This document shows, piece after piece, positions 1,039 through 56,370 of a stretch of DNA of 64,000 bases. The notes beneath the pieces were generated by a model. That model was not told where the DNA came from. It did no database searches and saw nothing but the letters and a program-made list of their open reading frames with translations. Numbering within the stretch: the first letter of the stretch is position 1; each line of letters begins with the position of its first letter. Source of the stretch: a bacterium (GTDB lineage: Bacteria > CAIWAD01). The position numbers and the translations under genes were made by a program. Location: positions 24,822 through 88,821 of the forward strand of contig JAUXWS010000087.1 of the NCBI GenBank assembly GCA_030685015.1, given 5' to 3'.

Positions 1039-1103
1039 GCGTCCTCCTGGTGTTTGTTGTGATTCACCAAGAATGGACAATTGGCCCGCGCTTTACTCCC
1101 GGG

Positions 1104-1157
1104 CCGTCTGGCGCGGGAGGGCTTTGTACAAATTTACGCTCCTCCCGCGCCAGACGG
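1104..1157. repeat. 17-bp perfect inverted repeat (stem-loop) just outside the IS256 transposase start
   Basis: ccgtctggcgcgggagg (1104-1120) and cctcccgcgccagacgg (1141-1157) flank an 18-nt loop containing ttgtacaa. No T-run follows on either strand. It may be an IS terminal or subterminal structure. Confidence 0.5.
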
Positions 1158-1210
1158 CGGGGCAGGAAAGTCCAGAAACGAAGTTACACCACCTGCGAAA
1201 GGCCTTGAAC

Positions 1211-3254: not shown

Positions 3255-3301
3255 GCTTCAATCAGTCCAAATAAAGCTGATTGTTCGAGTCCTGCTTACT
3301 C

Positions 3302-4456: not shown

Positions 4457-4479
4457 TGTTTCCCCTGTTTGATCGTGAA

Positions 4480-8640: not shown

Positions 8641-8703
8641 GGGGTCCCTCCGCGGCCGGCCAACACATGGCCCTCTATTGTGCGCCGGCCGGTAGCGTGG
8701 ATC

Positions 8704-11828: not shown

Positions 11829-12958
11829 CTGCGGCACTCCCCGAAGGTGCGGATGCGATCGATCACCCGATGAATGTCGGAGTCCGTCAAGGCACTTCCC
11901 GAGGGCAGGCAAAGGCCGCCTGCGAAGAGCTGCTCGGCCACGGTGCTGCCGAAGCAGCGACTGCCGCGGAAGACAGGCTGCAAATGCATGGGCTTCCACA
12001 CGGGCCGGGTCTCGATATCGTCCGTCTCCAAGTGCAGGCGCAAGGTCTCTGGATCCACACCAAACTTGTCGACGTCGATCTGGATCACGGTGAGCCAGCG
12101 GTTGTGACCAGCCCACGGAGCCTCGGGCATGAAAGTAATGCCCGGCACATTATCCAAGCCTAGGCGATAGGCTTCGAAGATCCGCCGCCGTGCGGCCACA
12201 CGCACGGGCAGCACACGCAATTGCGCCAAGCCGATGGAGGCCAACACGTTGCTCATGCGGTAATTGTAACCCCACTCCTTGTGCTCATAGTATGGCTTGG
12301 GCTCACGTGCTTGCTGCGATAAGTTACGGGCGCGGTCTATTAGGTCCCTATTCGCCGAACAGAGCATACCGCCGCCCGAGCTGGTGATGATCTTGTTGCC
12401 GTTGAAGGAGAAGATGGCGGCGTCCGCGTCCAGTCCCACAGGCCGTCCTTTGTATGTGGTCCCCACCGCCTCTGCGCAATCTTGTAACACGGGGATGCCA
12501 CGCTCGCGGCAAAGGGCCAGTATGGGGTCCATATCTGCAGGATGGCCGTACAAGTCCGTGGGAACTACGGCAGACACGCGACGCCCTTCCCGTTCACAGG
12601 TTGCTAGAGCCTCCGCAAGGACGTGTGAATCCATGCACCAGCTCTCTCGATCCGCGTCCACGAAGGCCAGCTCGGCCCCTTGGTACAAGGCAGAGGCGAT
12701 GCTGCCGATGAATGTAAGCGTGCTGGCTAGCACTGTGGTTCCCGGCCCCACCCCAACAAGGCGCATGGCTAGATGCATAGCGGCCGTGCCACTGCATAAA
12801 GCCAGTGCATTCCCATGATCAAGTAGTTCACAGAATTCAAGTTCGAAGGCGTCGACCATGGGCCCCAGGGGTGCAATGTAATTCGATTCAAAGGCCTGTT
12901 GAACCAGAGCCAGTTCGGTGCCATGCATATGAGGTGGCGAGAGAAATAGTCTAGCCAT
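11825..12958 (-). CDS. DegT/DnrJ/EryC1/StrS (PglE-like) PLP-dependent sugar aminotransferase
   Basis: 377 aa. FSFNGNKIITSSGGGML carries the PLP lysine. Motif EWGYNYRMSNVLASIGLAQL. Confidence 0.85.
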   Translation of the reverse strand: MARLFLSPPHMHGTELALVQQAFESNYIAPLGPMVDAFELEFCELLDHGNALALCSGTAAMHLAMRLVGVGPGTTVLASTLTFIGSIASALYQGAELAFVDADRESWCMDSHVLAEALATCEREGRRVSAVVPTDLYGHPADMDPILALCRERGIPVLQDCAEAVGTTYKGRPVGLDADAAIFSFNGNKIITSSGGGMLCSANRDLIDRARNLSQQAREPKPYYEHKEWGYNYRMSNVLASIGLAQLRVLPVRVAARRRIFEAYRLGLDNVPGITFMPEAPWAGHNRWLTVIQIDVDKFGVDPETLRLHLETDDIETRPVWKPMHLQPVFRGSRCFGSTVAEQLFAGGLCLPSGSALTDSDIHRVIDRIRTFGECRR

Positions 12959-12961
12959 GGT

Positions 12962-15304
12962 TCACCTTTTCACGTTATAACGATACTTGGGGAAGAAACT
13001 CTCAGGCACATCATCAATTCCGTGCACGATCTGGTTGCGCTCGCAAAGGGTTTCGTAGGCGGCCCCATCCACAACAATCCGTTGCGTGCTATACGGATAT
13101 ATCACTTGTGAGAAGCCAAGTTTGAATTGAAAAAGCTCGTCATCACGGCCACCCAATCCTCCTCCCAAGTTAAGCCATTCGGCACCAGATTCCGCATAAT
13201 ACTCAAAAGCTTTGTAAAACATGAGTTTCGATGGCGCCCAGTTGAGATGGTCATCCGTGGTGCCGCCAAGGTGATATTGGACAATACCGCCAGTTCGCAC
13301 GAATAGACCACCGGCGACGACCTTTCCCGCTGGGTTCAGAACCGATATCAAAGCGACATTCGGGCTCAGAACACGACGAAAATCATCGAAATATGCCCCA
13401 CTGAAGAAGTAATAGCGAGCCGCATTGACTCGGGTCATTGTCTGCGCGTATAGTTTTTGAAATACAGTATAATCTTCCCAGTGGTTAATTCGGACTTCGA
13501 AACCAGCCTTCTGGAGTTTTCGGATTGCACGTTTGTGGCTGTTCCGCATGCCCTGCTCAAAAGTGGCCAGATCTTGCCGAAGATTGATCATTACAGTGTT
13601 GCCATGCTTGAAGATCTCCCCCATGGCGCTGGCTGTCTCTGAGAAACAGCCCAGCAACGGGTGGTTGCGGAGAAATAGTGATACAATGTTATTCTGATAG
13701 CAGTAATGTTTTAGAGCCTTCATCAACTCATTCACTTGTGATTCGAAAACAGCATAGACTAGTGGTCCAGGATAGCCATATGGACTATATGCATCCCAAA
13801 GTCTATTTTCGGTAAGAGTCGTTGGTACGAGCCGCAGCAGAAGTGGAACGAACAATTCAGTTTCCCCCAATGTGATGTGCAGTGCAAGTGAACGAACTTC
13901 TTCTTCGCGTGCGCATAGCTTAAGATAGCCCGGCAGGTGATAGAAGTCATGGGGCAATCTTCCCAACACACGTTCCAGCTCCGCAGGTTGATCCAACAAA
14001 TCCCGAATCCTGCTTCGAATTCTTAAGGCGGGCACCCCGACTCGAGTTTCATATCCTTCACTGTCAACGATCTGCACGCTACCCGCTCCGAGTATTGTCC
14101 AGGGACGGATCCGCAGCTGAGGCAATACGCAGCATCCAACTCCTGCGAAAACACCCTCCTCAATATTGGCACCACCGCCCAAATGGACCCCAGGACACAA
14201 GTGGACATGATTCTTAATCAGGCAGTCATGGTCGACACTGCAGGAAGTGTTGAGAATCACGTTGCAACCGATAGATGCTCCAGTATTGACCACAACTCCG
14301 GCTGCAATGAAGGTGCCCATTCCTATTGGAACATCATCGGCAATGACCGCCGAAGGATGGATTACTGCTCGAACTTGCACTCCAGATTTAACCAACCAAT
14401 GAAACACTGTCATCCTTAATTGGTTGCTGCCAAAACCAATGATAACACAGTCGCAGCCACCTGCGCCAAACATAGTTGAAGCGATCGGGCCATACACTGG
14501 CCGGCCAAGGCAAGTCTGGCCATGTAACTGAACATCGTCATCTAGAAATCCGACCAGTTGCAGTTCTCCACCCGACTTCTCGGTGCACAGCACGGCATCC
14601 CCGATCACCCGGCCATGCCCGCCAGCCCCTAGCACCATAATCCTAGTCTTGGGCGAATGACCAATAAACTCGGGCATGGTGGCGTACCTTGGATGGCTGA
14701 TGCCCTCCCTTCTCACCACAAGAGAAACGGTCTTCCAAAGAATCCAAAAGTCAAGCATCAGGGAGTGGCGCTCAACGTACTCCACATCGTGCTCGAAACG
14801 CTCCTCCCAACTCAAGGAGTTGCGGCCTCGGATCTGCGCCAAACCCGTAATCCCGGGCTTCACCTCATGGCGACGGGCTTGGCGCGGGGAATAGCGTGGA
14901 ATGTACTCGACCATCAAGGGGCGCGGACCCACCAAGCTCATCTTACCACGCATCACCAACAGCAATTCAGGCAGCTCGTCAAGCGATGTGGAGCGCAGCC
15001 ACGCGCCAAACGGAGGAATGCGCTCCTCATCTGGCAGCAGGCGGCCCTGTGCGTCACGGGCGTCCGTCATGCTGCGGAACTTGACCAGTTCGAACAAAAG
15101 CCCATGCAGCCCCGGCCGTGTTTGCCTGAATAGAACCGGACGCCCTAGTTTAAATGCGATGGCCAGGGCCAATCCCATGAACATCGGCGCGAGCAACACA
15201 AGGGCGACCGCCGAGGCGCCGATATCAAACAAGCGTTTACCTGCCCGCCGGTATAGCCCTTGGCGCTCTAACCGCGCGGACGCCCAGCCGGAATCTGGAA
15301 TCAC
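12962..15304 (-). CDS. tri-domain fusion: bacterial sugar phosphotransferase (PglC/WbaP C-terminal type), NeuD/PglD-like hexapeptide N-acetyltransferase, and FemAB-related acyltransferase domain
   Basis: Domain 1 is KRLFDIGASAVALVLLAPMF...SLVGPRPL...PGITGLAQI. Domain 2 is MVLGAGGHGRVI...hexapeptide repeats. Domain 3 is ...AARYYFFSGAYFDD...VQYHLGGTTDDHLNWAPSKLMFYKAFEYYAESGAEWLNLGGG. The likely start is a GTG overlapping the upstream TGA (GTGA at 15301-15304). The long N-terminal extension in the ORF table overlaps the upstream gene. Confidence 0.7.
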   Translation of the reverse strand: MIPDSGWASARLERQGLYRRAGKRLFDIGASAVALVLLAPMFMGLALAIAFKLGRPVLFRQTRPGLHGLLFELVKFRSMTDARDAQGRLLPDEERIPPFGAWLRSTSLDELPELLLVMRGKMSLVGPRPLMVEYIPRYSPRQARRHEVKPGITGLAQIRGRNSLSWEERFEHDVEYVERHSLMLDFWILWKTVSLVVRREGISHPRYATMPEFIGHSPKTRIMVLGAGGHGRVIGDAVLCTEKSGGELQLVGFLDDDVQLHGQTCLGRPVYGPIASTMFGAGGCDCVIIGFGSNQLRMTVFHWLVKSGVQVRAVIHPSAVIADDVPIGMGTFIAAGVVVNTGASIGCNVILNTSCSVDHDCLIKNHVHLCPGVHLGGGANIEEGVFAGVGCCVLPQLRIRPWTILGAGSVQIVDSEGYETRVGVPALRIRSRIRDLLDQPAELERVLGRLPHDFYHLPGYLKLCAREEEVRSLALHITLGETELFVPLLLRLVPTTLTENRLWDAYSPYGYPGPLVYAVFESQVNELMKALKHYCYQNNIVSLFLRNHPLLGCFSETASAMGEIFKHGNTVMINLRQDLATFEQGMRNSHKRAIRKLQKAGFEVRINHWEDYTVFQKLYAQTMTRVNAARYYFFSGAYFDDFRRVLSPNVALISVLNPAGKVVAGGLFVRTGGIVQYHLGGTTDDHLNWAPSKLMFYKAFEYYAESGAEWLNLGGGLGGRDDELFQFKLGFSQVIYPYSTQRIVVDGAAYETLCERNQIVHGIDDVPESFFPKYRYNVKR

Positions 15305-24688: not shown

Positions 24689-25774
24689 ATGGAAATCGGC
24701 ATCATCGGCCTGCCCCAGGCGGGCAAGACCACATTGTTCAACGCACTCACCGGCCTGGGGGTGGATCTGGGCTACGCCGGCGGCCGCAAGAGCGCCAACC
24801 GCGGCGTAGCCCGCGTCCCGGACGAGCGGCTGGAGCAGCTCTCCCGGCTTTTCAAGCCGCGCAGCACGGTCCACGCCACGGTCAACTACGTGGATCTGGG
24901 CGGCCTCTCCGGCGAGGGACGGCGCTCCAGCGGCTTTCCCGCCGACGTCCTGCAGGCGCTCAAACCCTGCGAGGCGCTTCTGCTGGTCCTCCGCGCGTTC
25001 GACGACCCGGCCCGCCCCCACCCCGACGGTCCGGCCGACCCGCAGCGGGACTTCCGCACCGCCCGCGACGAGTTCATCCTCTCCGACCTGGCCATCTGCG
25101 AGGGCCGCATCGAGCGGCTGGAGAAACAGATGATGAAGGTGAAGGAGAAGGATCAGGCCTTCGAGCTGGAGACGCTCAAGCTCTGCCACGCCGCGCTGGA
25201 GGAGGAGCGGCCCCTGCGCACCCTGGAGCTGGACGAGGCGCGCCGCCGGGTGCTGCGCTCCTACGCCTTCCTCAGCCTCAAGCCGCTCCTGGTCGTGCTC
25301 AACGTGCAGGACAACGCGGTGCGCGACGAGTCCCGGCTGGAGGCCCTGCGCCAGGCCAAGGCGGGCGGTGGTCAGCGTTTCCTCCAGGTGAGCGCCCGCA
25401 TCGAGATGGAGCTGGCGCAGCTGGACGAGGCGGAGGCCGGCGAGTTCCTGGCCGAGTACGGCATCCAGGAGCCGGCCCTTCATCGGGTGTTGCGGGAAAG
25501 CTTCGCCCTGCTCGACCTCGAGACCTTCTTCACCGTGGGCGAGGACGAGTGCCGGGCCTGGACCCTGCGCCGCGGCAGCACCGCCCCCATGGCCGCCGGG
25601 GTCATCCACAGCGACATCCAGAAAGGGTTCATCCGCGCCGAAGTGGTCCCCTCCGCCGAACTCCTGCGCCTGGGCAGCATGGCCGCCTGCAAGGAGAAGG
25701 GCAGCCTGCGCCTGGAAGGCCGCGAGTACCTGGTGCAGGAGGGGGAGGTTGTCCATTTCCGCTTCAATGTCTGA
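24689..25774 (+). CDS. ychF: redox-regulated ribosome-binding ATPase YchF (Obg family)
   Basis: MEIGIIGLPQAGKTTLFNALT Walker A motif and C-terminal TGS domain (GSTAPMAAGVIHSDIQKGFIRAEVV). Confidence 0.9.
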   Translation: MEIGIIGLPQAGKTTLFNALTGLGVDLGYAGGRKSANRGVARVPDERLEQLSRLFKPRSTVHATVNYVDLGGLSGEGRRSSGFPADVLQALKPCEALLLVLRAFDDPARPHPDGPADPQRDFRTARDEFILSDLAICEGRIERLEKQMMKVKEKDQAFELETLKLCHAALEEERPLRTLELDEARRRVLRSYAFLSLKPLLVVLNVQDNAVRDESRLEALRQAKAGGGQRFLQVSARIEMELAQLDEAEAGEFLAEYGIQEPALHRVLRESFALLDLETFFTVGEDECRAWTLRRGSTAPMAAGVIHSDIQKGFIRAEVVPSAELLRLGSMAACKEKGSLRLEGREYLVQEGEVVHFRFNV

Positions 25775-27539
25775 CCAGGCCGTGTTCCCATCCTCCTTCC
25801 GCGAGCACTGGCGCTGGCTGCGCCCCGCGGGCGAGCCGCCCGCGGACGGCCTCCTGCGGGCCTGGCCCGATCTGGGTCCCGCCGGTCGCTCGGCGCTGCT
25901 GTCGCTGCTGGCCGAGGCGCGCCGCCGCCTGGAGGAGCAGGCCGTCCCGGAAGCCGCTCCGATGGAGGCCGGCCGCCTGGCGCTGGCCCGACGCCTGCTG
26001 GACCGGGAGGAGGCCGCCCTGGCCCACCCGCCCGCTCGCGGCGAGGTGGTGGCGTTGGTCGCGGACACCCTGGAGTCGGATCTGGAGGCGGATCCCGCCC
26101 GGTGTCTGGAGCGGCTGCGGCGGCTGGACGAGCTGTCCCGGCCCCTCTTCGGCCCCGAGGCTCCCCCTTTGGGCGGGGACGGCGAGGAGGGACGCGCCGC
26201 CGCCCAGCGCCTGCGCGCCCTGGCCGCTCACCTGGGCCATCGTCTGCCCCGCCTGTCGGGCGGCGAAGCGGATCCCGCCCTGGGCCCCCTCGAAGAGCTG
26301 GCCCGCCGGGTGGAGGAGCTTCCCCCGACCCCCCCGCCCGCCGGTCCAGACAGGTGGGCGGAGATCGGGACCGAGGGTGGCTGGGAGCTGGCTCCCCTGT
26401 TGCAGCGGATCGAGGAGGAGCTGGGCCGCGTCCGCCGCGAGGCGGCGCGCCGCGCCCTCCTCCTCCGGCAACGCTTCCTGGGTTCGGCCGAGGCCCCCGG
26501 CGGCGACCTCCCCTGGATCCTGGCCCAGCTGGCCCTGGATCCGCCCCGCGCCGAGCACTGGCGCTGGCTGCACCAGCGGCTGGTCGGCGAGCTGGCCCGC
26601 CACCTGGACCGCCTGGGCCTTGCCGCGGGCCGCCTGGCTGTGCGGCTCTCGCCCGGCCTGTCGCCCGACCAGCCGGATCCCGCCTGTGACGGGTCGGGCG
26701 CGGCCCTCGGCCTGGCCGACCTCTCCCTGCTGGCGCCGGAGGAGCTGGAATCATTCCTGGAATCATGCGGCCACGCCCTCCTGCCGCTCCTTGTCGCCCG
26801 GGAAGGATTGCCCGGTCGCGCCTGGCGCTTGGCCGCAGCCCGGGAGGAAGGTGGTGACCCGGCGCGCGATGTGGTGGCCGTCCTTCTGCGCCCGGCGGAC
26901 CTGGAAGCCTGGGCCCGCTGGGCCGGGGACTGGGCCCTCCAGGCCGGCTGGCAGGCGGGCGACCTGCGTGTGCGCCTCTGCCAGGCCCGCCGCGAGGAGC
27001 TGGACTGGCTGCTGGCGCGCGCCGACCTGGAGCGCCGGCTGGGCAGTCGCGGCGAGGAGGAAATCCGCGAGCGCCTCTGCCGCGAGGCCGCCTTGTCCGC
27101 GCGGGCGGGCGAGGCCGCCTGGCGGCGCCTGGTCAGGGAGCCGGGCAGCCAGGCCGCCGCCGCCCTGCGTCTGCTCCATTTCCGCGAGGCGGGCCGCCGC
27201 TGGCGCCGTGCGCATCGGGAGGCCGCCTCGGCCGACTGGTTCCATCTGTTGGCAGCCTGCGCCCCCTTCCCGCTCGCCTGGCTGCGTCAGCATCTGCACC
27301 AGCTCCCGCCGCCGGGCCTGGCCTGGCGGCCACAGCCGCCCGCTCTCGTCAAGCCCGTCACGCCGCGGGGGGAGGGCCTGCTCAGCGAGATGGAGGAGCG
27401 GCTGGCCGCGCTGGGCCGCATCCGGCGCGAGGACCTGGAGGCCGGCCGCGAGTTCGACGGCGCCCCCGCCGGGCCGCCCACAGCCGATCCCCCGGGGCGA
27501 GATGGGTCGGAGGAAGAGGTCGATGCGTCAGCTGAGTGA
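25767..27539 (+). CDS. hypothetical protein, 590 aa, Arg/Leu/Ala/Glu-rich, no recognisable domain
   Basis: ATG overlaps the ychF stop (ATGTCTGA) and the 3' end overlaps the ABC exporter start by 17 nt. Very high GC3 codon usage in this frame is consistent with real coding. EHWRWL motif occurs twice. Confidence 0.55.
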   Translation: MSDQAVFPSSFREHWRWLRPAGEPPADGLLRAWPDLGPAGRSALLSLLAEARRRLEEQAVPEAAPMEAGRLALARRLLDREEAALAHPPARGEVVALVADTLESDLEADPARCLERLRRLDELSRPLFGPEAPPLGGDGEEGRAAAQRLRALAAHLGHRLPRLSGGEADPALGPLEELARRVEELPPTPPPAGPDRWAEIGTEGGWELAPLLQRIEEELGRVRREAARRALLLRQRFLGSAEAPGGDLPWILAQLALDPPRAEHWRWLHQRLVGELARHLDRLGLAAGRLAVRLSPGLSPDQPDPACDGSGAALGLADLSLLAPEELESFLESCGHALLPLLVAREGLPGRAWRLAAAREEGGDPARDVVAVLLRPADLEAWARWAGDWALQAGWQAGDLRVRLCQARREELDWLLARADLERRLGSRGEEEIRERLCREAALSARAGEAAWRRLVREPGSQAAAALRLLHFREAGRRWRRAHREAASADWFHLLAACAPFPLAWLRQHLHQLPPPGLAWRPQPPALVKPVTPRGEGLLSEMEERLAALGRIRREDLEAGREFDGAPAGPPTADPPGRDGSEEEVDASAE

Positions 27540-29259
27540 GATCTTCCGCCTGCTGGTCCGCTACCGTTCCCGCCTGCTGGTGGGCGCCTTCTTCGTGCTG
27601 GTCACCAACACCATCCTCATCTTCGGCCCGCGCGTGCTGGGCCTGGCCGTGGACGACCTGCGCGACGGCCTGGTGCGCCACTCCCTGGGCTGGTACCTGG
27701 GCTGGCTGCTGGCCATCAGCCTGGGCCAGGGCTTGGCCCGCTTCGCCATGCGCCGCATCCTCATCGGCACTTCGCGGCGGGTGGAGCGCGACCTGCGCGC
27801 CACCTACCTGGAGCGGTTGCTCGAGCTGCCGCGGAGCTTCTACGCCCGGCGCTACACGGGCGACATCATGAGCCGCGCCACCCAGGACATCGAGAACGTG
27901 CGCATGGCGGCCGGACCGGCCCTCATGTACTCGCTGGACACGATCCTGCTCAGCGCCTACGCCCTCACCATGATGCTGCTCATCCACCCCGCCCTCACCG
28001 GCATCGTGCTGGCCCTGCTGCCCGTCATCAGCGGCCTGGTCTGGTGGCTCTCCCACCGCATCCACCTGGCCACAATGGATGCCCAGCGCTGCTTCGGGCG
28101 CGTCTCCACCGTCGTGCAGGAGGCCCTCTCCGGCATCCGCGTCATCCAGGCCTACGTCCGCGAGGAGCATCAGGCCCGCCGCTTCGACGACCAGCTGGTG
28201 GAGTACCGTCGCCTGCAGATGCGGCTGGTGGGCCTCCAAAGCGCCTTCCGGCCGCTGCTCGGCCTGCTCTTCGCCCTGGGACAGGGCCTGGTTCTGTGGC
28301 AGGGCGGACGCCTCATCGTCGAGGGTGCCCTCACCCTGGGCGACTACGTGGCCTTCTCCACCTACCTGACCCTGCTGTCCTGGCCGATGGTGGCCACCGG
28401 CTGGAGTCTCAGCCTGCTGCAGCGCGGCAGCGCCGGCATGCGACGGCTCAACGAGGTGCTGGGCGCCTCCGTCGAGCTGGCCTGGGGCGGCGCCCGGCCC
28501 CGCCTGCAAGCTCGCCTGAGCGTGCAGGGACTGGGCTTCCGCTACCCGGACGCGGAGGCGGACGCCCTCCAGGACCTCAGCTTCGACCTGGAGCCGGGTC
28601 AGGCCATGGGCATCGTGGGCCTGACCGGCTGCGGCAAATCCACCCTGCTGCGCCTGCTGGCGAGGCAGGCCGATCCCGACCGCGGTCGCATCCTGCTGGA
28701 CGGCCATGACATCCGCAGCCTCGATCCCGGTCTGCTGCGCTCCATGATGACGGTCGTGCCCCAGGACGCCTTCCTCTTCAGCGCCACCCTGGCCGGCAAC
28801 GTGGCCTATGGGCGGCCCGACGCCCCCCGCGCCGAGCTGGAGCGCGCCGCGGCGGACAGCCGCCTCGAGCAGGACCTGCCCCAGTTGCCAGCCGGTTGGG
28901 AGACCCTGGTGGGCGAGCGGGGCGTGACCCTCTCCGGCGGACAGAAGCAGCGGGCCACCATCGCCCGCGCCCTGGTGCCCGAGGCCCCCATCCTCTTGCT
29001 GGACGATGCCCTCTCCGCCATCGACACGCGCACCGAGGAGGCCCTTGTCCACCGCCTGCGCGACGTGATGGCCCGGCGCACCGTGCTCATCGCCTCCCAC
29101 CGGCTCTCCATCATGCGGGAGGTGGACGTCATCATCGTGCTCGACCAGGGCCGCATGGTCGAGCGCGGCACCCATGACGAGCTGGTGAAGCGGGGCGGCC
29201 TCTACGCCGAGCTGTGGCGCCGCCAGGAGCTGCGCAGCGCCCTCGAGGAGGCGGCATGA
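27523..29259 (+). CDS. ABC transporter permease/ATP-binding protein (type I exporter half-transporter, subunit 1)
   Basis: Six-TM domain followed by Walker A (GLTGCGKST), signature (LSGGQKQRATIARAL) and Walker B (ILLLDDALSAID) motifs. Confidence 0.85.
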   Translation: MRQLSEIFRLLVRYRSRLLVGAFFVLVTNTILIFGPRVLGLAVDDLRDGLVRHSLGWYLGWLLAISLGQGLARFAMRRILIGTSRRVERDLRATYLERLLELPRSFYARRYTGDIMSRATQDIENVRMAAGPALMYSLDTILLSAYALTMMLLIHPALTGIVLALLPVISGLVWWLSHRIHLATMDAQRCFGRVSTVVQEALSGIRVIQAYVREEHQARRFDDQLVEYRRLQMRLVGLQSAFRPLLGLLFALGQGLVLWQGGRLIVEGALTLGDYVAFSTYLTLLSWPMVATGWSLSLLQRGSAGMRRLNEVLGASVELAWGGARPRLQARLSVQGLGFRYPDAEADALQDLSFDLEPGQAMGIVGLTGCGKSTLLRLLARQADPDRGRILLDGHDIRSLDPGLLRSMMTVVPQDAFLFSATLAGNVAYGRPDAPRAELERAAADSRLEQDLPQLPAGWETLVGERGVTLSGGQKQRATIARALVPEAPILLLDDALSAIDTRTEEALVHRLRDVMARRTVLIASHRLSIMREVDVIIVLDQGRMVERGTHDELVKRGGLYAELWRRQELRSALEEAA

Positions 29260-31076
29260 ACGGGATGGGCATGGGCGGGGGCATGCGCCATGGCCGCGCC
29301 TCCGACAGCGAGCGCGGACTGGACGGCCGCCTCCTGCGCCGTCTCACCGCCTACCTGCGGCCGCACTGGCGGGGAGCCCTCCTCGCCCTGCTCATGATCC
29401 TGGGCGCCGCCGCCCTGGAGACGGCCGTGCCCCTGGTGACGCGCCACGCCATCGACGTGCATGTGGCGGGGCGCGACCTGGCCGGGCTCTTCCGATCCCT
29501 CCTGGCCTTCCTGGGACTCTCCCTGGGCGCCTTCCTGCTGCGCTACGCCCAGCAGCTGACCACGGGCTGGATCGGCCAGAGCATCGTCCTCAAGCTGCGC
29601 GGCCGGGTCTTCGCCCGCGTCCTGCGCCTGCCCCTGGCCTGGTTCGACCGCCACCCCGTCGGTCAGGTGATGAGCCGCATCACCAACGACGTGGAATCCT
29701 TGAACGAGCTGTTCACGGGCGGCCTCATCCTCATCTTCCAGGACATCCTGCTGCTGGTCGCCATCGCCGCCGCCCTCCTCTGGATGGACTGGCGCCTGGC
29801 TTTGGTCCTCTTCGCCGTGGTGCCCTTCATCTTCCTGGCCAGCTTCCAGTTCAAACGGTTGACCCGGGCCGCCTTCCGCCGCGTGCGGGCCCTGGTGGGC
29901 GAAGTGACGGGCTTCCTGCAGGAGACGATCACGGGCATGGCCGTGGTCCAGCTCTTCCGGCGGGAGCGCGGCACCCGGGAGCGCTTCGCCCGCATGAACG
30001 ACGAGCTGATGCGGGAGAATGTCCGCACCATCTTCTACTTCGCCGTCTTCTTCCCGCTGATGGAGCTGCTGGGCAGCGTGGCGACGGCGGCCATCATCTG
30101 GGCGGCGGCGGGACGCCTGCTGGAGGGCAGCCTGAGTTTCGGCGCCCTGGTCGCCTTCCTGGCCTACGCCGATCGCTTCTTCCGCCCCATCCGCGACCTG
30201 GCCGAGAAGTACAACATCCTGCAGAGCGCCATGGCCGCCTCCGAGCGTGTCTTCGAACTGCTGGACGAGCCGGCCGCCCTGGCTGGTGGCCTGGTGGGCG
30301 CGCCCGGCGGTCCGCCCGCTCCGCCACGGCGGGGAGAGGTGGTGTTCGAGGGGGTCTGTTTCGCCTATGAAGGGGAGAACTGGGTGCTGCAGGACCTCTC
30401 CTTCCGCATTGAAGCCGGCACCAGCACGGCCCTGGTGGGCTGGACGGGCGCCGGCAAGAGCAGCGTGGCCGGCCTGCTGCTGCGCTACTACGAGTTCCAG
30501 CGCGGACGAATCCTGGTGGACGGCGTGGACATCCGCCAGTGGGATGCGGCCGCCCTGCGCGGGCGCATGGCCATCGTCCTCCAGGATGTCTTCCTCTTCT
30601 CCGGGACGGTGGCCGACAACATCCGCCTGGGGCGCGAGCTGCCGGTGGGGGCGGTGGAGGCGGCGGCGCGGCGCACCGGCCTGGACCGCCTGGCCGGACA
30701 GCGCGCCCTGGGCTATGAGGAGCCGGTGGGGGAACGGGGTCAGCTGCTCAGCGGCGGCCAGCGCCAGCTGGTCAGCTTCTCGCGGGCCCTGGCCGGGGAT
30801 CCGGCCATCCTGGTGCTGGACGAGGCGACCAGCAGCGTGGACTCCTTGTCGGAAGAGCTGATCCAGCAGGCCATCGCCCAAATGATGAGCGGACGCAGCT
30901 CTCTGGTCATCGCCCATCGCCTGTCCACCATCCGCGCCGCCGACCAGATCCTGGTCCTGCACCAGGGCCGGCTGGTGGAGCGGGGCCGCCACGACGAGCT
31001 GCTGGCGGCGCAGGGCTTCTACCATCGCCTCTGGCAGCTGGAGCAGCCGGTGGGGGAGGCGGACCGTGCAGCTTGA
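29256..31076 (+). CDS. ABC transporter permease/ATP-binding protein (type I exporter half-transporter, subunit 2)
   Basis: ATGA overlap with subunit 1. Walker A (GWTGAGKSS), signature (LSGGQRQLVSFSRAL) and Walker B (ILVLDEATSSVD) motifs. Confidence 0.85.
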   Translation: MNGMGMGGGMRHGRASDSERGLDGRLLRRLTAYLRPHWRGALLALLMILGAAALETAVPLVTRHAIDVHVAGRDLAGLFRSLLAFLGLSLGAFLLRYAQQLTTGWIGQSIVLKLRGRVFARVLRLPLAWFDRHPVGQVMSRITNDVESLNELFTGGLILIFQDILLLVAIAAALLWMDWRLALVLFAVVPFIFLASFQFKRLTRAAFRRVRALVGEVTGFLQETITGMAVVQLFRRERGTRERFARMNDELMRENVRTIFYFAVFFPLMELLGSVATAAIIWAAAGRLLEGSLSFGALVAFLAYADRFFRPIRDLAEKYNILQSAMAASERVFELLDEPAALAGGLVGAPGGPPAPPRRGEVVFEGVCFAYEGENWVLQDLSFRIEAGTSTALVGWTGAGKSSVAGLLLRYYEFQRGRILVDGVDIRQWDAAALRGRMAIVLQDVFLFSGTVADNIRLGRELPVGAVEAAARRTGLDRLAGQRALGYEEPVGERGQLLSGGQRQLVSFSRALAGDPAILVLDEATSSVDSLSEELIQQAIAQMMSGRSSLVIAHRLSTIRAADQILVLHQGRLVERGRHDELLAAQGFYHRLWQLEQPVGEADRAA

Positions 31077-31083
31077 GCCGATC

Positions 31084-32106
31084 ATGCTGCTGGCGGACGG
31101 GGTGACCGCCTCCTTCTGGGTCCTGCTCATGGCCGGCCTGCTGGGGGGGCTCACGGCCGGCCTCTTCGGCGTGGGCGGCGGCGTCATCGTCACGCCCCTG
31201 CTCATCTCCCTGGGCGTGCCGCCCCGCATCGCCGCCGGCAGCATGAACGTGGCCATCATCGCCAATGCGGCCGACTCGCTGGTGCACGACCTGCCGCGGC
31301 GCCGGGTCGACTGGCGGCTGGGTCTGTTCATGGGGGCGGCCGCCGTGGCGGGCGGGCAAGCGGGGACATTTTGGCTGGGCCGCCTGGGCAAGCCGGAATT
31401 GGTGGACCTCATGATCCGCGCCGGCTTCCTTGTCCTGCTGGCCTACATGGCCTATCACCTGCTGCGCAAGAAGCTGTCCCGCGGGGACACCGCCCGCCGC
31501 TGGCTCTTCCACATGCCCCTGCGCTACCAGAGTCCCTGGGAGGAGGCGCCGGTCAGCGCCCTGGGTCCCGTCCTGGCCTCGCTGGGGGGCGGCCTGGTGG
31601 CATCCTTGCTGGGAGTGGGCGGCGGCATCTTCTACGTGCCGGTCCTCCTGGCCCTCTTCCACCGCCCCCTGCAGGAGCTGGTCCCCGTCAGCCAGATCGC
31701 CGTCCTGCTGGGCACCTTGTCCGTCAGCACGGGCCATGTGCTGCACACGGGCTTCATCGATCCGCGCCTCTCCCTCATCCTGATCACGGCGGGCAGCGTG
31801 GGCACGGTGGTGGGCACGCGGCTCAAGTCGCACCTGGAGAGCCGGCTGTTGGAGCGCCTGCTCGCCCTGGTGCTCCTGGCCGCCGCGCTGCGCCTCGCCC
31901 TGCCCCTGATCGGGTTGGAGGCATCCCCCGCGCGGGCCGCGACGACCCTGGGGCGGGACTGGCTGCGGCCCTTCGCCGACTGGTGCGCCCGCGATCCGCT
32001 TCACCTTTGGCTGGGCACGGTGGGCGTGGCCCTGGGCATGGCACCGCTTCTCTCCTGGCTGCAGCATGCCCTCCTGGACCGCTTGCGCCGACGGAGCGCC
32101 ACCTGA
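31084..32106 (+). CDS. TauE/SafE (TSUP, DUF81) family anion-exporter permease
   Basis: Duplicated 4-TM halves each carrying a GVGGG motif (LFGVGGGVIVTPLL and LLGVGGGIFYVPVL). Confidence 0.75.
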   Translation: MLLADGVTASFWVLLMAGLLGGLTAGLFGVGGGVIVTPLLISLGVPPRIAAGSMNVAIIANAADSLVHDLPRRRVDWRLGLFMGAAAVAGGQAGTFWLGRLGKPELVDLMIRAGFLVLLAYMAYHLLRKKLSRGDTARRWLFHMPLRYQSPWEEAPVSALGPVLASLGGGLVASLLGVGGGIFYVPVLLALFHRPLQELVPVSQIAVLLGTLSVSTGHVLHTGFIDPRLSLILITAGSVGTVVGTRLKSHLESRLLERLLALVLLAAALRLALPLIGLEASPARAATTLGRDWLRPFADWCARDPLHLWLGTVGVALGMAPLLSWLQHALLDRLRRRSAT

Positions 32107-32132
32107 TGATCATCAGCAGCCCACGGGGACAA

Positions 32133-32338
32133 CCCCCGGGCAACCCCCGGGCAACACCAGGGCAACACCAGGGCAACACCAGGGCGGCACCAGGGCAACA
32201 CCAGGGCAACACCAGGGCAACACCAAGGCGACACCAGGGCAACACCAGGGCAACACCAGGGCGACACCAGGGCAACACCAGGGCAACACCAGGGCAACAC
32301 CAGGGCGACACCAGGGCGACACCAGGGGGCCAATTCGC
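32133..32338. repeat. 11-bp tandem repeat array, about 18 copies (consensus CACCAGGGCAA)
   Basis: Two cccccgggcaa units are followed by caccagggcaa units with occasional A-to-G or G-to-A variants. The array fills the whole gap between the TauE stop (32104-32106) and the reverse-strand stop at 32340-32342. It has no stop codon in any of the six frames. Confidence 0.95.
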
Positions 32339-32339
32339 C

Positions 32340-32624
32340 TCAGTAGCAGGCGTCGCGTCCAGTGCTGATGCTGAAAGCCGCCCGGTCTCGACCCTGGCGG
32401 TAATCCACCACCGCCTCCTCCACCCACTCCCGCTCCTGGGAATCCATCAGCACGAGGATCCCATTGACGTGAAGCTGTTTATCACTCTCCTGCGGCTCGT
32501 CCAGAGCCAGCCCCAGGCGGGGCCCGCCTCACCCGTGGCCGGCGATGGTGACACGCAAGCCCGCGCCGGGGTGTTCGGCCAGGATGGCCTGCAGGCGCTC
32601 CCGCGCCTTGTCGGTGATCTGCAC
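32340..32624 (-). CDS. IscA/HesB-like iron-sulfur cluster insertion protein with an in-frame TGA (candidate selenocysteine) at the conserved Cys position
   Basis: Reverse-strand translation from GTG 32624 gives (M)QITDKARERLQAILAEHPGAGLRVTIAGHG-TGA-GGPRLGLALDEPQESDKQLHVNGILVLMDSQEREWVEEAVVDYRQGRDRAAFSISTGRDACY*. It aligns to E. coli IscA [23 protein letters not shown] with the TGA (32529-32531) opposite Cys35. The hairpin GCCCC-gcct-GGGGC begins 6 nt after the TGA. Confidence 0.55.
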
Positions 32625-32688
32625 ATGGCCTCCCAGGATTCGCACAATCTGCTTCCACCCGCACAACCATGAGGGCGGGGCTGCCAGC

Positions 32689-32717
32689 TTGACGCCGCCA
32701 GACCGGCCACATAATAT
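32689..32717 (+). promoter_or_regulatory. near-consensus sigma70-type promoter (TTGACG, 17-bp spacer, TAATAT) overlapped by a 23-bp perfect palindrome
   Basis: The -35 element is 32689-32694 and the -10 element is 32712-32717. The palindrome AATATTTCATG-C-CATGAAATATT (32713-32735) covers the -10 and the predicted transcription start site. Confidence 0.5.
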
Positions 32718-32977
32718 TTCATGCCATGAAATATTTCAACAAGACCTTGGATTGTCACAAGTTCGACATGCTGACACATTGTTAGTTATGACGTATTCTG
32801 GCAGATTTGCGGGCGCCCTGTCGTATGTCAATACAAGCGGAACGGGCGGTTCAGCCTGGCTTTCCTTTGTCAATCAGGGTGCTGCGGTTTTTGCCGCTTC
32901 GGTGGCTTCGCGCGGACCATCCCGGGGCTTCGCCGGCGGATGCTCGCGGAAGGGACTCAACCATGTCAGGAGGATCC

Positions 32978-33796
32978 ATGTCGACCCGCATCTGGCTCTT
33001 GCTTGTCTGTCCGGCCCTGGCCTTCGGCTATGCCAGCGGTCCGCCCAACGGCCTCACGGGCGCGCCCGGCGAAGGCACCTGCATCCAATGTCATGACAGT
33101 TTCGGTTTGAACAGCGGCAGCGGCCTGCTCACCATCAGCGGTCCGGACGAGTATGAGCCGGGCCAGACCTATCCCATCACGGTCACGCTGGCCCACGCCG
33201 GCCAGTCCCGCTGGGGCTTCCAGATGACCCCCCTGGACTTGGGAGCGCTCCTGGTCACGGACTTCGTCAACACCCAGGGCAGCAGCACGGGCGGCAACAG
33301 CTACGTGAAGCACACCACGACCGGAACCCAGGCCGGCACGGCGGACGGCCCGGTGAGCTGGACCTGCGACTGGATCGCCCCGGCCACCGACGTGGGACCG
33401 GTCACCTTCTACGCCGCCGGCAACGCGGCCAACGGCAACTTCAGCAACAGTGGCGACTACATCTACACGGCCTCCTTCACGACGGAGTTCCCCACGGGCA
33501 TGGCGCCCGTCCTTGTCCGTGGCTTCGCCCTGCTGGACGCCTATCCCAACCCCTTCAATCCCGGCACCACCCTGCGCTATCGCCTCGATGTCCCCGGCGA
33601 AGCGCGGCTGGAGGTCTACGATCTGGCTGGCCGTCTGGTGGACCGGCTGGCCCAGGGCTGGCATGGCGTGGGCGAGTACACGGCGCGCTGGGCCGGATTG
33701 GCGCAGGGCGGCCGACCCGCCGCCGCCGGCGTCTATCTGGCCCGCCTGGAGTTGAACGGCGCGGCCGAGGTGAAGCGCCTCCTGCTGGTGAAGTGA
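32978..33796 (+). CDS. secreted protein with single CxxCH motif and C-terminal T9SS-type (Por secretion tail) sorting domain
   Basis: Signal peptide MSTRIWLLLVCPALAFGYA. CIQCH lies 25 aa after the predicted cleavage site. The C-terminus YPNPFNPGTTLRYRLDVPGEARLEVYDLAGRLV...GVYLARLELNGAAEVKRLLLVK matches the T9SS C-terminal domain consensus. The alternative ATG at 32963 is possible. Confidence 0.65.
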   Translation: MSTRIWLLLVCPALAFGYASGPPNGLTGAPGEGTCIQCHDSFGLNSGSGLLTISGPDEYEPGQTYPITVTLAHAGQSRWGFQMTPLDLGALLVTDFVNTQGSSTGGNSYVKHTTTGTQAGTADGPVSWTCDWIAPATDVGPVTFYAAGNAANGNFSNSGDYIYTASFTTEFPTGMAPVLVRGFALLDAYPNPFNPGTTLRYRLDVPGEARLEVYDLAGRLVDRLAQGWHGVGEYTARWAGLAQGGRPAAAGVYLARLELNGAAEVKRLLLVK

Positions 33797-50361: not shown

Positions 50362-50837
50362 CCGGTCCGACCCTTGACGGGGCGGGCGGGCACGCCGGCC
50401 ACCACGGCGCCGTCGGGCACGTCCTTCGTCACCACGCTGCCCGCCCCCACCATCGCGTCCCGGCCGATCGTCACGCCGCAAAGGATGGTGGAACCAGTGC
50501 CGATGGAGGCTCCCGCCAGCACCCTCGTGCGCTCCAGGGTCCAGTCCTCCTCGGTCTGGGGCGAGCCGTCCGCCCGCGTGGCGCGGGGGCGCCGGTCATT
50601 GATGAAGGAGACGTTGTGGCCCACAAAGACGCCGTCGCCGATCTCCACCCCCTCGCAGATGAAGGTGTGGCTGCTGATCTTGCAGTTGCGGCCGATGCGC
50701 GCGCCCTTCTGGATCTCCACGAAAGCGCCCACCTTGCTCCCATCGCCGATCTCGCAGCCGTAGAGGTTGACAAAGCAGAAGATCCTGACCCCCTCGCCCA
50801 GCTTGACGTCCGGCGCGATCCTCGTATAAGCCTCCAT
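50358..50837 (-). CDS. hexapeptide-repeat acyltransferase (WbbJ/maltose O-acetyltransferase-like)
   Basis: Left-handed beta-helix repeats (VGHNVSFINDRRP...IGTGSTILCGVTIGRDAMVGAGSVV). Confidence 0.75.
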   Translation of the reverse strand: MEAYTRIAPDVKLGEGVRIFCFVNLYGCEIGDGSKVGAFVEIQKGARIGRNCKISSHTFICEGVEIGDGVFVGHNVSFINDRRPRATRADGSPQTEEDWTLERTRVLAGASIGTGSTILCGVTIGRDAMVGAGSVVTKDVPDGAVVAGVPARPVKGRTG

Positions 50838-50867
50838 CCGGCCATTCCTTTCTCCAGGTGAACTCCC

Positions 50868-51881
50868 CTACGACAGCTCAGCCAGCTCCACCCGGCGGCC
50901 GCCCTGGCGCAGGCTGTGCTCGGCGGCCTCCAGCATGCGCGTCACGCGCAGGGCGTGGGCCGGGCCGCAGAGGGGTTCGGCGCCCGTGCGGATGCCGGCC
51001 AGGAAGTCACGGGCCATGCCCGCCAGCGCCTCGCCGCCGTCCAGGCGCGGCGCGCGCATGTCCCCCGTGCGATAGCTGACCAGCGTGCGCCAGATCTCCT
51101 CGGGCCGGGTCAGTTCCACGCCGCGGTCGTACACCTTGATCTTCTCGCTGGGCTCCATGTCATCGTACACGACCATGTGGCGGTCGCCGCCGATGAGGAT
51201 GCGCCTCACCTTGACGGGGGCGATCCAATTGACGTGGAAGTGGGCGATGAGCTGGTCCGGATAGAAGACCGTCAGGTAGGCCAGATCCTCGTGCTGGTAG
51301 TAATGGCGGGCGCCGCAGGCCTGCACGGCCTGGGGCTCCACCCCCGTCAGGTGGTCGCAGATGCTGAGGTCGTGGGGCGCCAGGTCCCACACCACGTTGG
51401 TGTCGTGCTGGAAGAGGCCCAGGTTGACGCGCACGCTGTCGAAGTAAAGCAGGCGGCCCAGTTCGCCGCCGTCCACCAGCTCGCGGATCTTGCGCACGGC
51501 CCCGGTGTAGAGGAAGGTGTGGTCCACCATCAGGGTCAAGCCCTTGCCCCGGGCCAGTCCGATCAGTTCGCGGGCCTGGGCGGCGCTTTCCGTGAAGGGC
51601 TTCTCCACCAGCAGGTGGCAGCCCGCCTCCAGGGCCAGCCGTCCCAAGTCGAAATGGGTGGAGAGGGGCGTGGCCAGCGCCACGGCGTCCAGCCCTTGCC
51701 CGAGCATCTGCTCGAAGCCGGCGGCCACCCGTGTTCCGGGAAATCGCCGGGCGGCGGCGGTGCGGCGCCCCTCGTCGAGGTCGGTGATCCAGAGCTCCTC
51801 CACGTCGGGCAGGGCCTGGAAATTGCGCACCAGATTGGGTCCCCAGTAGCCGAGCCCCACCACGCCGAATCTCATGATCAC
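50868..51881 (-). CDS. Gfo/Idh/MocA-family oxidoreductase (second WbpB-like sugar-nucleotide dehydrogenase)
   Basis: MRFGVVGLGYWGPNLVRNF...EKPFTESAAQAREL. Confidence 0.75.
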   Translation of the reverse strand: MIMRFGVVGLGYWGPNLVRNFQALPDVEELWITDLDEGRRTAAARRFPGTRVAAGFEQMLGQGLDAVALATPLSTHFDLGRLALEAGCHLLVEKPFTESAAQARELIGLARGKGLTLMVDHTFLYTGAVRKIRELVDGGELGRLLYFDSVRVNLGLFQHDTNVVWDLAPHDLSICDHLTGVEPQAVQACGARHYYQHEDLAYLTVFYPDQLIAHFHVNWIAPVKVRRILIGGDRHMVVYDDMEPSEKIKVYDRGVELTRPEEIWRTLVSYRTGDMRAPRLDGGEALAGMARDFLAGIRTGAEPLCGPAHALRVTRMLEAAEHSLRQGGRRVELAELS

Positions 51882-51933
51882 CTCGCTGGTCGACCGGACA
51901 GTGTCACTCTTCTTCGCTATCGCTTTCGGTACT

Positions 51934-51966
51934 GATCTCGATATCGATATCGATATCGGTATCGAT
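51934..51966. repeat. hexanucleotide repeat block (ATCGAT/GATATC)n
   Basis: gatctcgatatcgatatcgatatcggtatcgat lies in the divergent promoter region. Confidence 0.9.
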
Positions 51967-52046
51967 TCCGGGTTCGGCCCTCAGACCAATGTCCATGCGC
52001 GAAGCCACTTATAGACTGTGAGTCTGACTGCAAGCCGAGAAACAAT

Positions 52047-52103
52047 CTCGATCACGATATCGATATCGATAGCGATAGCGATAGCGATAGCGATAGCGAT
52101 AAC
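52047..52103. repeat. hexanucleotide repeat block, GATATC x2 then (AGCGAT)x6
   Basis: tcgatcacgatatcgatatcgatagcgatagcgatagcgatagcgatagcgataa lies 115 bp upstream of the DegT-like start. Confidence 0.9.
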
Positions 52104-52217
52104 TGTGGTCAAGGTCGGATGAAGGCCCCGGTTTCTCCAAGCCGCGCCCAATCGCCACCTTTCCGCCTGCCCGAGCGGCCGGGGCGGCCGCCGGGGGACC
52201 ATCAGCACGGAGCTGTC

Positions 52218-53336
52218 ATGCCCGTCCCCTTCCTTGATCTGAAGATCCAATACCAGAGCATCAAACCCGAGATCGACGAAGCCATTGCCGGCATCCTCGC
52301 CCGGACCGAGTTCGTGACGGGTCCCACCGTCCGCGCCTTCGAGGAGGCCTTCGCCGCCGCCCACGGGGTCCGCTTCTGCGCCACCTGCAACAGCGGCACG
52401 GCGGCCCTGCATCTCATGCTGTGGGGGTTGGACATCGGACCCGGCGACGAGGTGCTCACCGCCGCCAACACCTTCATGGCGACGGCGGGCGGGATCAAGC
52501 TGGCCGGCGCCCGGCCCCGCCTGGCCGACGTGCGCGAGGAGGACTTCAACCTGGACCCGGAGCGCGTGGAGGCGGCCCTCACGCCGCGCACCCGCGCCCT
52601 CCTTCCCGTCCACCTCTACGGCCAGTGCGCCGATCTGGCCCCGCTCGCGGAGATCGCCCGCCGCCACGGCCTCCTGCTTCTGGAGGATGCCGCCCAGGCC
52701 CACCTCGCCACCTTCGAGGGCGGGCATGCCGGGCAGCATGGACGCGCCGCCGCATTCAGTTTCTACCCGGGCAAGAACCTGGGAGCCTACGGCGAGGGCG
52801 GCGCCGTGCTCACCAACGACGAGGACCTCTGGCGGCGCATCTGCCGCCTGCGCGACCACGGCATGCCCGAGAAGTACCTGCACACCGAGTGGGGCCACAA
52901 CTACCGGCTGGAGGGCCTGCAGGGGGCCGTCCTCGGCGTCAAGCTGCGCCATCTGGAAGCCTGGACGGAGGCCCGTCTCCAGGTGGCCGCCTGGTACCGG
53001 GAGGAGCTGGCCGGCCTGCCCGGCCTCCTTTGTCCGCAGGAGTTGCCCGGCCGCCGCCATGTCTACCACTTGTTCGTCATCCGCGTGACGCCGGAGTCCG
53101 GCATCAGCCGCGATGCCCTGATGGCCCGTCTGCAGCAGGCGGGAATCGGCTGCGGCCTGCACTATCCGCGCCCCGTCCACCTGCAGCCGGCGGCGGCGGA
53201 ACTGGGCTACCAGGCCGGGGACTTCCCGGTGACGGAGCGCCTCGCTGGCGAGATCCTCAGCTTGCCCATGTACGCGGAGCTGACGCGGGAGCAGGTGGCG
53301 GAGGTGGGTCGAATCCTGCGCTCAGCCCTGTCCTGA
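52218..53336 (+). CDS. DegT/DnrJ/EryC1/StrS PLP-dependent sugar aminotransferase (third copy in window)
   Basis: Start MPVPFLDLKIQYQ. FSFYPGKNLGAYGEGGAVL carries the PLP lysine. The upstream 33 codons in the ORF table are discounted. Confidence 0.85.
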   Translation: MPVPFLDLKIQYQSIKPEIDEAIAGILARTEFVTGPTVRAFEEAFAAAHGVRFCATCNSGTAALHLMLWGLDIGPGDEVLTAANTFMATAGGIKLAGARPRLADVREEDFNLDPERVEAALTPRTRALLPVHLYGQCADLAPLAEIARRHGLLLLEDAAQAHLATFEGGHAGQHGRAAAFSFYPGKNLGAYGEGGAVLTNDEDLWRRICRLRDHGMPEKYLHTEWGHNYRLEGLQGAVLGVKLRHLEAWTEARLQVAAWYREELAGLPGLLCPQELPGRRHVYHLFVIRVTPESGISRDALMARLQQAGIGCGLHYPRPVHLQPAAAELGYQAGDFPVTERLAGEILSLPMYAELTREQVAEVGRILRSALS

Positions 53337-55805: not shown

Positions 55806-56370
55806 GGCGGGTCTTGCCCCGTCGCAGCCGCAGGGCCACCTTGCCGTCCGTCCCCGATCGCGCCCAGGCGGACACCGTCTGGCGGATCGCGCCCTCGTCC
55901 TCCGCTTCCAGCACGCGTCCGGGTTGGGAGTACTCGGCCAGGTAGTCCTCAACGGAGCAGATCACCTTGGCGGGCACTCCGCCCACCACGCTGTCCGGCG
56001 GCACGTCCCGGGTGACCAGCGCCCCCGCCGCCACCACGCTGCCTCGTCCCACGCGCACCCCTGGCATGATCACCGCCCGCGTGCCCACGAACACGTCGTC
56101 CTCGATGACGATGCGTCCCACCACATTGACCAGGTCCGTGCGCCCGGCCCGGTTGAGCATGGCGATGGCCCCGTCGTGGTTCAGCAGCAGGGTCCCCGCC
56201 GTGAGCCAGACGTTCTCACCGATCTCCGTCAGATGGGGCTCGGCGATGCTGGCGTTGAAAACGGGAAGCCAGGCCGGCGCGCGCAGACCCCGGCGGCGGT
56301 AGCGCTCCAGGGGGGTGAAGCGCAGGCGCTCCCAGGCGGCGGAGGCCCGCTTCAACAGGCGTGTCAGCAT
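55795..56370 (-). CDS. hexapeptide-repeat acetyltransferase (WcaF/NodL-like)
   Basis: Hexapeptide repeats [18 protein letters not shown] and [27 protein letters not shown]. Its 3' end overlaps the convergent flippase by 11 nt. Confidence 0.7.

Follow-up and report, generated by a model that had tools for sequence, protein, structure and literature searches.

A conserved in-frame TGA codon followed by a SECIS-type hairpin in a HesB/IscA-like gene: a probable bacterial selenoprotein

Genetic organization of the locus

The window (the whole 64-kb stretch of DNA analyzed here, with a GC content of 66%) carries on its minus strand a short reading frame, 32624..32340, whose translation is VQITDKARERLQAILAEHPGAGLRVTIAGHG*GGPRLGLALDEPQESDKQLHVNGILVLMDSQEREWVEEAVVDYRQGRDRAAFSISTGRDACY* (asterisks mark the TGA codons). 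The first-pass annotation had described this region as a 94-codon reverse-strand frame (32340-32624) split by a TGA codon at 32529-32531. Both the frame and the internal TGA (32531-32529, minus strand) were confirmed, but the start codon is GTG (32624-32622) and not ATG. It was placed by alignment with homologues, whose Met starts fall at exactly the same position. Beyond the internal TGA the frame continues as GGPRLGLALDEPQ...GRDACY to a terminal TGA (32342-32340, minus strand). The features of the locus are listed in Table 1.

Table 1. Position of the predicted selenoprotein gene, its internal features and its neighbors in the window
Feature	Position	Strand	Remarks
ABC exporter gene	29214-31076	+	convergent with the selenoprotein gene
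TauE/SafE permease gene	31066-32106	+	convergent with the selenoprotein gene
HesB/IscA-like selenoprotein gene (predicted)	32340..32624	-	94 codons including Sec32; GTG start, TGA stop
Cys93 codon	32346..32348	-	invariant C-terminal cysteine column of the family alignment
SECIS core hairpin GGCUC-UGGAC-GAGCC (predicted)	32494..32508	-	+21..+35 after the UGA; codes for part of Leu-Ala-Leu-Asp-Glu-Pro
Possible accessory helix (+4, +5, +7-9 with +15-17, +19, +20)	32509..32525	-	RNAalifold consensus; status uncertain
UGA probably read as selenocysteine (codon 32)	32529..32531	-	aligned with Cys35 of E. coli IscA; opens the UGGP ("UxGP") motif
Shine-Dalgarno-like GGGAGG	32629..32634	-	4 nt 5' of the GTG; seen in the sequence, putative role
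Sigma-70-like promoter match TTGAAA-17-TATTAT	32711..32739	-	AT-rich intergenic region, about 87 nt 5' of the start
Gene for a secreted-type protein with a FlgD_ig domain	32807-33796		divergent from the selenoprotein gene

The gene stands alone between its neighbors. The candidate promoter, defined by its match to the consensus alone, agrees with it at 10 of 12 positions, and five such sites occur in the region (0.1 expected in shuffled sequences).

Both halves of the frame had been said to show the high GC3 typical of the window, and this holds: the value is 0.94 on the 5' side of the TGA and 0.79 on the 3' side, compared with 0.8-0.95 for the genes of the window. A six-frame scan for in-frame TGA codons with coding-type composition on both sides returned only the codon at 32531-32529 and two ordinary junctions, i.e. 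adjacent genes that happen to share a frame. TGA terminates 33 of the 38 Pfam-supported genes in the window; it is thus an ordinary stop codon in this organism, and a local signal is required for reading past codon 32.

Assignment to the HesB/IscA family

For homology searches (Pfam, NCBIfam and phmmer) the protein was written with cysteine in place of selenocysteine. It matched the Pfam model PF01521 (Fe-S_biosyn) with 33.9 bits (gathering score 26.3). In phmmer alignments with E. coli IscA (PDB 1s98/1r94) the TGA column corresponds to Cys35, and in those with HI1723 (2apn) and Aq_1857 it corresponds to the equivalent cysteine. The original proposal of an IscA/HesB-like protein with TGA at the position of Cys35 is therefore well founded.

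The best NCBIfam model was NF038090 (IscA_HesB_Se), followed by TIGR00049, ErpA and TIGR01911 (HesB_rel_seleno). A match to HMMs of selenoprotein HesB was thus obtained, NF038090 being the top model, but the scores lie below the curated cut-offs of both selenoprotein models: 58.9 bits against 85 for NF038090, and 29.5 bits (over residues 3-63) against 66.35 for TIGR01911. The TIGR00049 score (48.6; cut-off 58.8) is also too low, as are those for the IscA, SufA and ErpA equivalogs. The ligand set of A-type carriers (C ... C-x-C, three cysteines) is incomplete in this protein: UGA occupies the first Cys position and the ...RDACY terminus contains a single Cys.

Compared with the A-type carriers IscA, SufA and ErpA (PF01521, TIGR00049), the protein is homologous over its full length and retains the Asp-aromatic pair (VDY) and a C-terminal Cys. 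It differs in that the first ligand would be Sec instead of Cys, and that the C-G-C/CxC pair is reduced to one cysteine. With the TIGR01911 HesB-like selenoprotein it shares its nature as a small IscA/HesB homologue with Sec in UxGP.

HesB-like selenoproteins reportedly appear in the selenoproteome surveys of Kryukov/Zhang and Gladyshev. That this is a known selenoprotein family, as the first-pass annotation had stated, agrees both with the NCBIfam models NF038090 and TIGR01911 and with the literature. Among the established selenoprotein families of prokaryotes, HesB-like protein is listed with the motif UxGP (PMC13188914), into which the U-G-G-P of the window protein fits. It occurs in many anaerobes, including anaerobic Deltaproteobacteria, Clostridia and methanogens (PMC1794560), and the HesB-like selenoprotein of Methanococcus maripaludis was confirmed by 75Se labelling, although its function is unclear (PMC11097638).

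The relationship with the NF038090 core could be examined directly, in four metagenome loci whose products pass its cut-off (L055, L047, L058 and L062; 101-120 bits). They have the TGA column in common with the window gene, as well as U(G/S/A)GP...GLALDEPQ and an identical GGCUC-UGGAY-GAGCC hairpin. In contrast, scores of only 47-73 bits were obtained for the clade of the window gene (L001, L015-L019) and for the spirochaete and Bacillales clades. The window protein is also shorter (94 aa versus about 101-104 aa in core members) and ends with a single Cys (ACY; CC in its relatives), whereas the core members L055, L047 and L058 end with CGSCSC or CGSSCEC. L062 passes the cut-off, yet terminates in GTCF. 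The window gene is an outlying member of an already described kind (HesB-like/IscA_HesB_Se).

Distribution of the TGA codon among related loci

A TGA codon in the same column was found in 56 other loci (L009, L010, L001-L007, 45 of L015-L062, L063 and L064). The closest of them, L009 (90% nucleotide identity) and L010 (95%), come from other JGI metagenomes and are population variants of this locus; both retain the TGA and the open frame.

A scan of genomes, one per species, produced eight loci. Seven of these, with 33-67% GC, have TGA in the column in question, followed by GGP(R/K/S)xGLALDEPQ and a C-terminal Cys. The carriers are an uncultured bacterium MAG, two Spirochaetaceae MAGs, a Deferribacterales MAG, Thalassorhabdus alkalitolerans, Neobacillus sp. 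PS3-12 and a Bacillales MAG. The locus of the uncultured bacterium (L001; 63% identity) has the same convergent TauE/ABC-exporter neighbors as the window gene. The eighth locus (L008) is an ordinary Cys-containing ErpA-like gene.

A metagenome scan seeded on the peptide GLALDEPQ added 48 loci (L015-L062), 45 with TGA and three with TGC (L045, L046 and L049). The latter are ErpA-like and near-identical to each other, and L045 scores 91.7 bits with TIGR00049. Whether Cys or Sec occupies this column in relatives had been named as a check on the proposal, and the answer is clear: TGA in 56 loci, Cys in the ErpA-like L008, L045, L046 and L049.

The identity of the TGA-containing relatives to the window protein ranges from 30% to 94%, and their frames contain no frameshifts or extra stops. 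Near the C-terminus all carry C, CC or CxC; the window protein (ACY) lacks the second C-terminal Cys present in most of them. Since the TGA is common to distant lineages and the frame downstream is intact, a nonsense mutation cannot explain it. The choice made by the first-pass annotation, a selenoprotein rather than a gene inactivated by such a mutation, is borne out by these 56 loci, in which coding sequence both 5' and 3' of the codon is conserved. Among three close variants, dN/dS on the 3' side of the TGA is 0.56-0.77; these values derive from 12-24 substitutions, so that recent constraint is weakly demonstrated.

Relatives in public protein sets

When U was replaced by C, a word-indexed search against 5.8 billion clusters gave no significant matches; by itself this is uninformative, and it is accounted for by the miscalling of family members. 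An exhaustive phmmer search of 1.84 billion representatives, in which the query consisted of the 62 residues located 3' of the TGA, yielded only 13 hits, 12 of which were retrieved. Nine of the 12 are fragments of 35-70 aa that start right after the TGA (LGLALDEP..., MALDEP..., MD(V/A)QEREW...), including the calls at the window's own locus in L009 and L010. Two more are full-length with "W" in the Sec column, where their DNA has TGA. The nearest true Cys protein shows 39% identity.

The relatives are thus represented only by 3' fragments or code-4 W calls, and the clade is almost invisible to standard annotation. As judged from these sequences, it seems to have no close Cys orthologues.

The two full-length entries (L063 148-438 and L064 444-776) were deposited with Trp in the Sec column because the contigs had been translated under a code in which TGA specifies Trp; the L064 product was also read past its true TGA stop. 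Such artefacts of annotation could lead searches for Cys/Sec pairs astray.

Hairpins downstream of the TGA codon

In an alignment of the DNA around the TGA from 45 distinct sequences with this codon, the block GGCUC-UGGAY-GAGCC at +21..+35 varies at a single position, the pyrimidine at +30. Within the hairpin the codons are fixed: Ala8 is GCT, Leu9 is CTG and Glu11 is GAG in 45 of 45 sequences, and Leu7 is always YTG. By contrast, all four codons occur at Gly6 and Pro12, two residues that are equally invariant but immediately flank the stem (entropy 1.90 and 1.76 bits). In the TGC forms GLALDEPQ is also encoded, but through GCA/GCG and CTC, and the hairpin is thereby broken: its MFE is -3.1 and -5.9 kcal/mol there, compared with -8.4 to -9.9 in every TGA form. 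As these Cys forms came from the same peptide-seeded search and do vary at synonymous sites, the seeding introduced no bias at such sites.

The two loci in which the peptide itself deviates provide a further test. In L063 (GLSLDET) the sequence is CUG UCU CUG GAU GAG ACA, and pair 22-34 has changed from G-C to U-A through the substitution of Ala by Ser together with that of Pro by Thr. In L064 (GLALDEL) it is UUA GCU CUG GAU GAG CUA, pair 21-35 has changed from G-C to A-U, and the stem grows to 7 bp. Both compensatory changes had been predicted from the peptides before the DNA was inspected and were then borne out by it. Taken as comparative sequence evidence, these patterns show that the +21..+35 hairpin is under selection at the nucleotide (RNA) level.

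In the published model of bacterial SECIS elements (PMC13188914), the loop measures 3-9 nt and the stem 4-16 bp, the first two loop positions include a G (mostly with G or U after it), the UGA and the loop are 16-37 nt apart, and the MFE is at most -7.5. The window hairpin has the 5-nt loop UGGAC with G at positions 2 and 3, a 5-bp stem that can be extended by one U.G pair (to 32493-32509), a spacing of 25 nt and an MFE of -8.5, and so agrees with all four published constraints. Like the bSECISearch consensus and the SECIS of E. coli fdhF, it is a stem-loop within the coding sequence right after the UGA, with a small apical loop and G then G near its 5' side. The fdhF element has a bulged U, which the window hairpin appears to lack. 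In its location inside the coding sequence it differs from archaeal SECIS elements, which are usually found in the 3' UTR (PMC13188914).

When stretches of 42-111 nt around or downstream of the UGA were folded, they were no more stable than shuffled sequences (z 0.0 to -0.8); in a context of about 70% GC, the thermodynamics of single sequences is uninformative.

A different hairpin, the GC-rich GCCCC-gccu-GGGGC beginning 6 nt past the TGA, had originally been put forward as the SECIS. This structure (+6..+19) does exist in the window sequence, but relatives do not keep its register, pairs 7-18 and 10-15 being lost in them, and the loop, 10 nt from the UGA, is too close to it. We rejected this structure as the SECIS in favor of the following hairpin at +21..+35, which is conserved.

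The RNAalifold consensus contains a second helix (+4..+20) that overlaps the +6..+19 hairpin in a different register. Most of its pairs are fixed by the Gly/Gly/Pro...Gly/Leu codons, +9/+15 being the one free pair. The latter is CG in 38 sequences, AU in four, UA in one, UG in one and unpaired in one, with five changes on both sides, a number reached by none of 500 shuffles. L063 adds a further A-U at this pair; mismatches in the helix occur in L064 (C.A) and L042. From this pattern the +4..+20 helix is possibly an accessory element, and not the SECIS.

Two origins are conceivable for the three TGC loci L045, L046 and L049 (Cys column, GLALDEPQ, other synonymous codons, hairpin absent): their peptide may be similar to the ancestral one out of which the SECIS evolved, or they may be Sec-to-Cys revertants.

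Decoding of the UGA codon

Two things are established by the comparisons described above, as far as sequence analysis allows: the homology to A-type carriers with a deeply conserved UGA in the ligand-Cys column, and a SECIS-type hairpin under selection. We consider it highly probable that an intact gene for a HesB/IscA-like selenoprotein of 94 residues is present here and that its internal UGA is decoded as Sec by means of the +21..+35 SECIS. In the proposed mechanism, translation would begin at the GTG at 32624. At the UGA (32531-32529) the mRNA hairpin GGCUC-UGGAC-GAGCC, with its apical loop 25 nt from the codon, would recruit SelB with Sec-tRNA(Sec). Selenocysteine would then enter at the position of the first cluster-ligand Cys of A-type Fe-S carriers, and translation would proceed to the TGA at 32342-32340. 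In the 15 nt of the hairpin, which also encode the conserved (L)ALDEP, RNA and protein constraints therefore overlap.

Genes for the decoding machinery were sought nearby. No selA, selB, selD or tRNA-Sec gene was found in the 64-kb window or in the related loci examined; ARAGORN detected no tRNA-Sec in the window or in 54 related loci, and Rfam reported nothing in the window at gathering thresholds. The window contains no tRNA and no other candidate selenoprotein. From the conserved codon and hairpin we infer that SelB and tRNA-Sec decode the UGA in the source organism.

This lack of Sec machinery in the window and in the related loci examined would also be expected if an IscA/HesB-type gene had been killed by a change of TGC or TGT to TGA at the ligand Cys, so that a product of 31 residues, or no product, remained. 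That genes of this genome normally stop at TGA (33 of 38 window genes) and that dN/dS downstream of the TGA is 0.56-0.77 among close variants point in the same direction. We nevertheless regard such a pseudogene as very improbable, given that the TGA column is kept in 56 other loci over distant lineages with the downstream frame intact, that the synonymous sites of the hairpin are frozen only when the codon is TGA, and that L063 and L064 show compensatory changes in the stem. Moreover, 1.84 billion representatives include no close Cys orthologue, the best true Cys form having 39% identity.

It is equally improbable that the UGA is decoded without selenium, either as Trp or Gly through a genome-wide code 4 or 25, or as Cys or Trp through near-cognate suppression stimulated by the hairpin. 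The identity of the residue inserted at codon 32 is itself deduced from sequence, and two relatives in the public protein sets have W in the Sec column. However, these W calls are TGA codons that a gene caller translated under another code. In the window, TGA ends 33 of 38 genes and is found in frame in no other coding region, and the carriers include Bacillales and Spirochaetes, which should use the standard code. In addition, the column corresponds to a ligand cysteine in the alignment, the classic Sec/Cys pairing, and the hairpin fits the model of a SelB-type SECIS.

The least credible explanation, that the 15-nt block is kept for some reason other than a SECIS (the LALDEP peptide or a DNA-level site) and that Sec insertion is directed by the +4..+20 helix, can appeal to the covariation at +9/+15 (five two-sided changes, 0/500 shuffles), but a peptide constraint cannot freeze synonymous sites, which vary in Cys forms with the same peptide, the loop of that helix is 9-10 nt from the UGA and so outside the 16-37 nt range, and its other pairs are set by Gly/Pro/Gly/Leu codons, with mismatches in L042 and L064.

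Decoding of the UGA as Sec through the +21..+35 hairpin implies a selenocysteine-decoding trait for the uncultured high-GC source organism. It also corrects a gap in annotation: gene callers split or drop the gene, because UGA is read as a stop in routine annotation. The predicted SECIS core is sequence-identical across phyla and doubles as the LALDEP codons; the locus offers a clean natural case in which RNA and protein constraints act jointly on a single 15-nt stretch, with the Cys forms as a built-in control. It reveals neither a new mechanism nor a new family.

As a more tentative proposal, which we find plausible without favoring it, the gene would belong to a distinct, uncurated HesB-like branch that scores below both curated models and appears to have no close Cys counterpart. 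This branch would comprise proteins of 92-98 aa ending with C or CC, from the high-GC lineage of the window, Spirochaetaceae, Deferribacterales and Bacillales. A single 15-nt SECIS core would have been kept in it across phyla by doubling as the LALDEP codons, possibly with a second, accessory helix beside the UGA. If this is true, the joint replacement of Ala by Ser and Pro by Thr in the motif was dictated by RNA pairing and not by protein function.

Probable role and gene neighborhood

Sec32 and the C-terminal Cys93 would likely bind an Fe-S cluster or another metal or metalloid, or else form a selenenyl-sulfide redox pair.

When 112 ORFs that flank the gene in its relatives (L001-L007, L015-L062) were surveyed with Pfam, no shared operon and no sel genes emerged, only lineage-specific neighbors. 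TauE was found in three flanking ORFs and ABC-transporter domains in two to three, which match the 346-aa and approx. 604-619-aa ORFs located 3' of the gene in the clade of the window (L001, L016). Iron-transfer P-loop NTPases of the Mrp/NUBPL type (PF10609) were present in nine flanking ORFs; the survey gives counts only, with the loci unassigned, and these are probably the recurrent downstream ORFs of about 290-300 aa in the spirochaete-type loci. Arsenic-resistance genes (ArsA, ArsD and LMWPc) accounted for two to three flanking ORFs each. The Mrp/NUBPL and Ars neighbors hint at an Fe-S or metalloid link, though they are not conserved across the family.

Other features of the window

The convergent gap between the stop codons of the TauE gene (32106) and the selenoprotein gene (32340) is filled by an 11-nt tandem repeat of perfect period, CAACACCAGGG (32130-32327; 18.0 copies). 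The number of copies varies, with 20.6 in L009 (2648-2874) and 20.0 in L010 (4841-5060), and L001, the relative with 63% identity, lacks the repeat. The TauE gene called in L010 runs across the repeat and was thereby extended to 433 aa.

At its start the window contains a gene for a Mutator-family transposase (PF00872, E 6e-74; 1-1092, minus strand), which runs off the end of the sequence. Two large polysaccharide-biosynthesis clusters (1100-24400 and 50800-63700) encode glycosyltransferases, DegT aminotransferases, a pyruvyl transferase, a sugar transferase, flippases and UDP-GlcNAc 2-epimerases. The part from about 1100 to 15300 may be an acquired island, since none of its ORFs passes the high-GC3 filter, which the genes in the rest of the window do pass. 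A 2-oxoacid dehydrogenase complex and band-7 proteins are also encoded.

Finally, the region 25549-29259 contains several long overlapping ORFs on both strands, with an unusually high GC content at codon position 1 (0.86-0.89). One of the ORFs in this part of the window (596 aa; 25749-27539) had no Pfam match. The corresponding region of L010 was called as a second ABC exporter.
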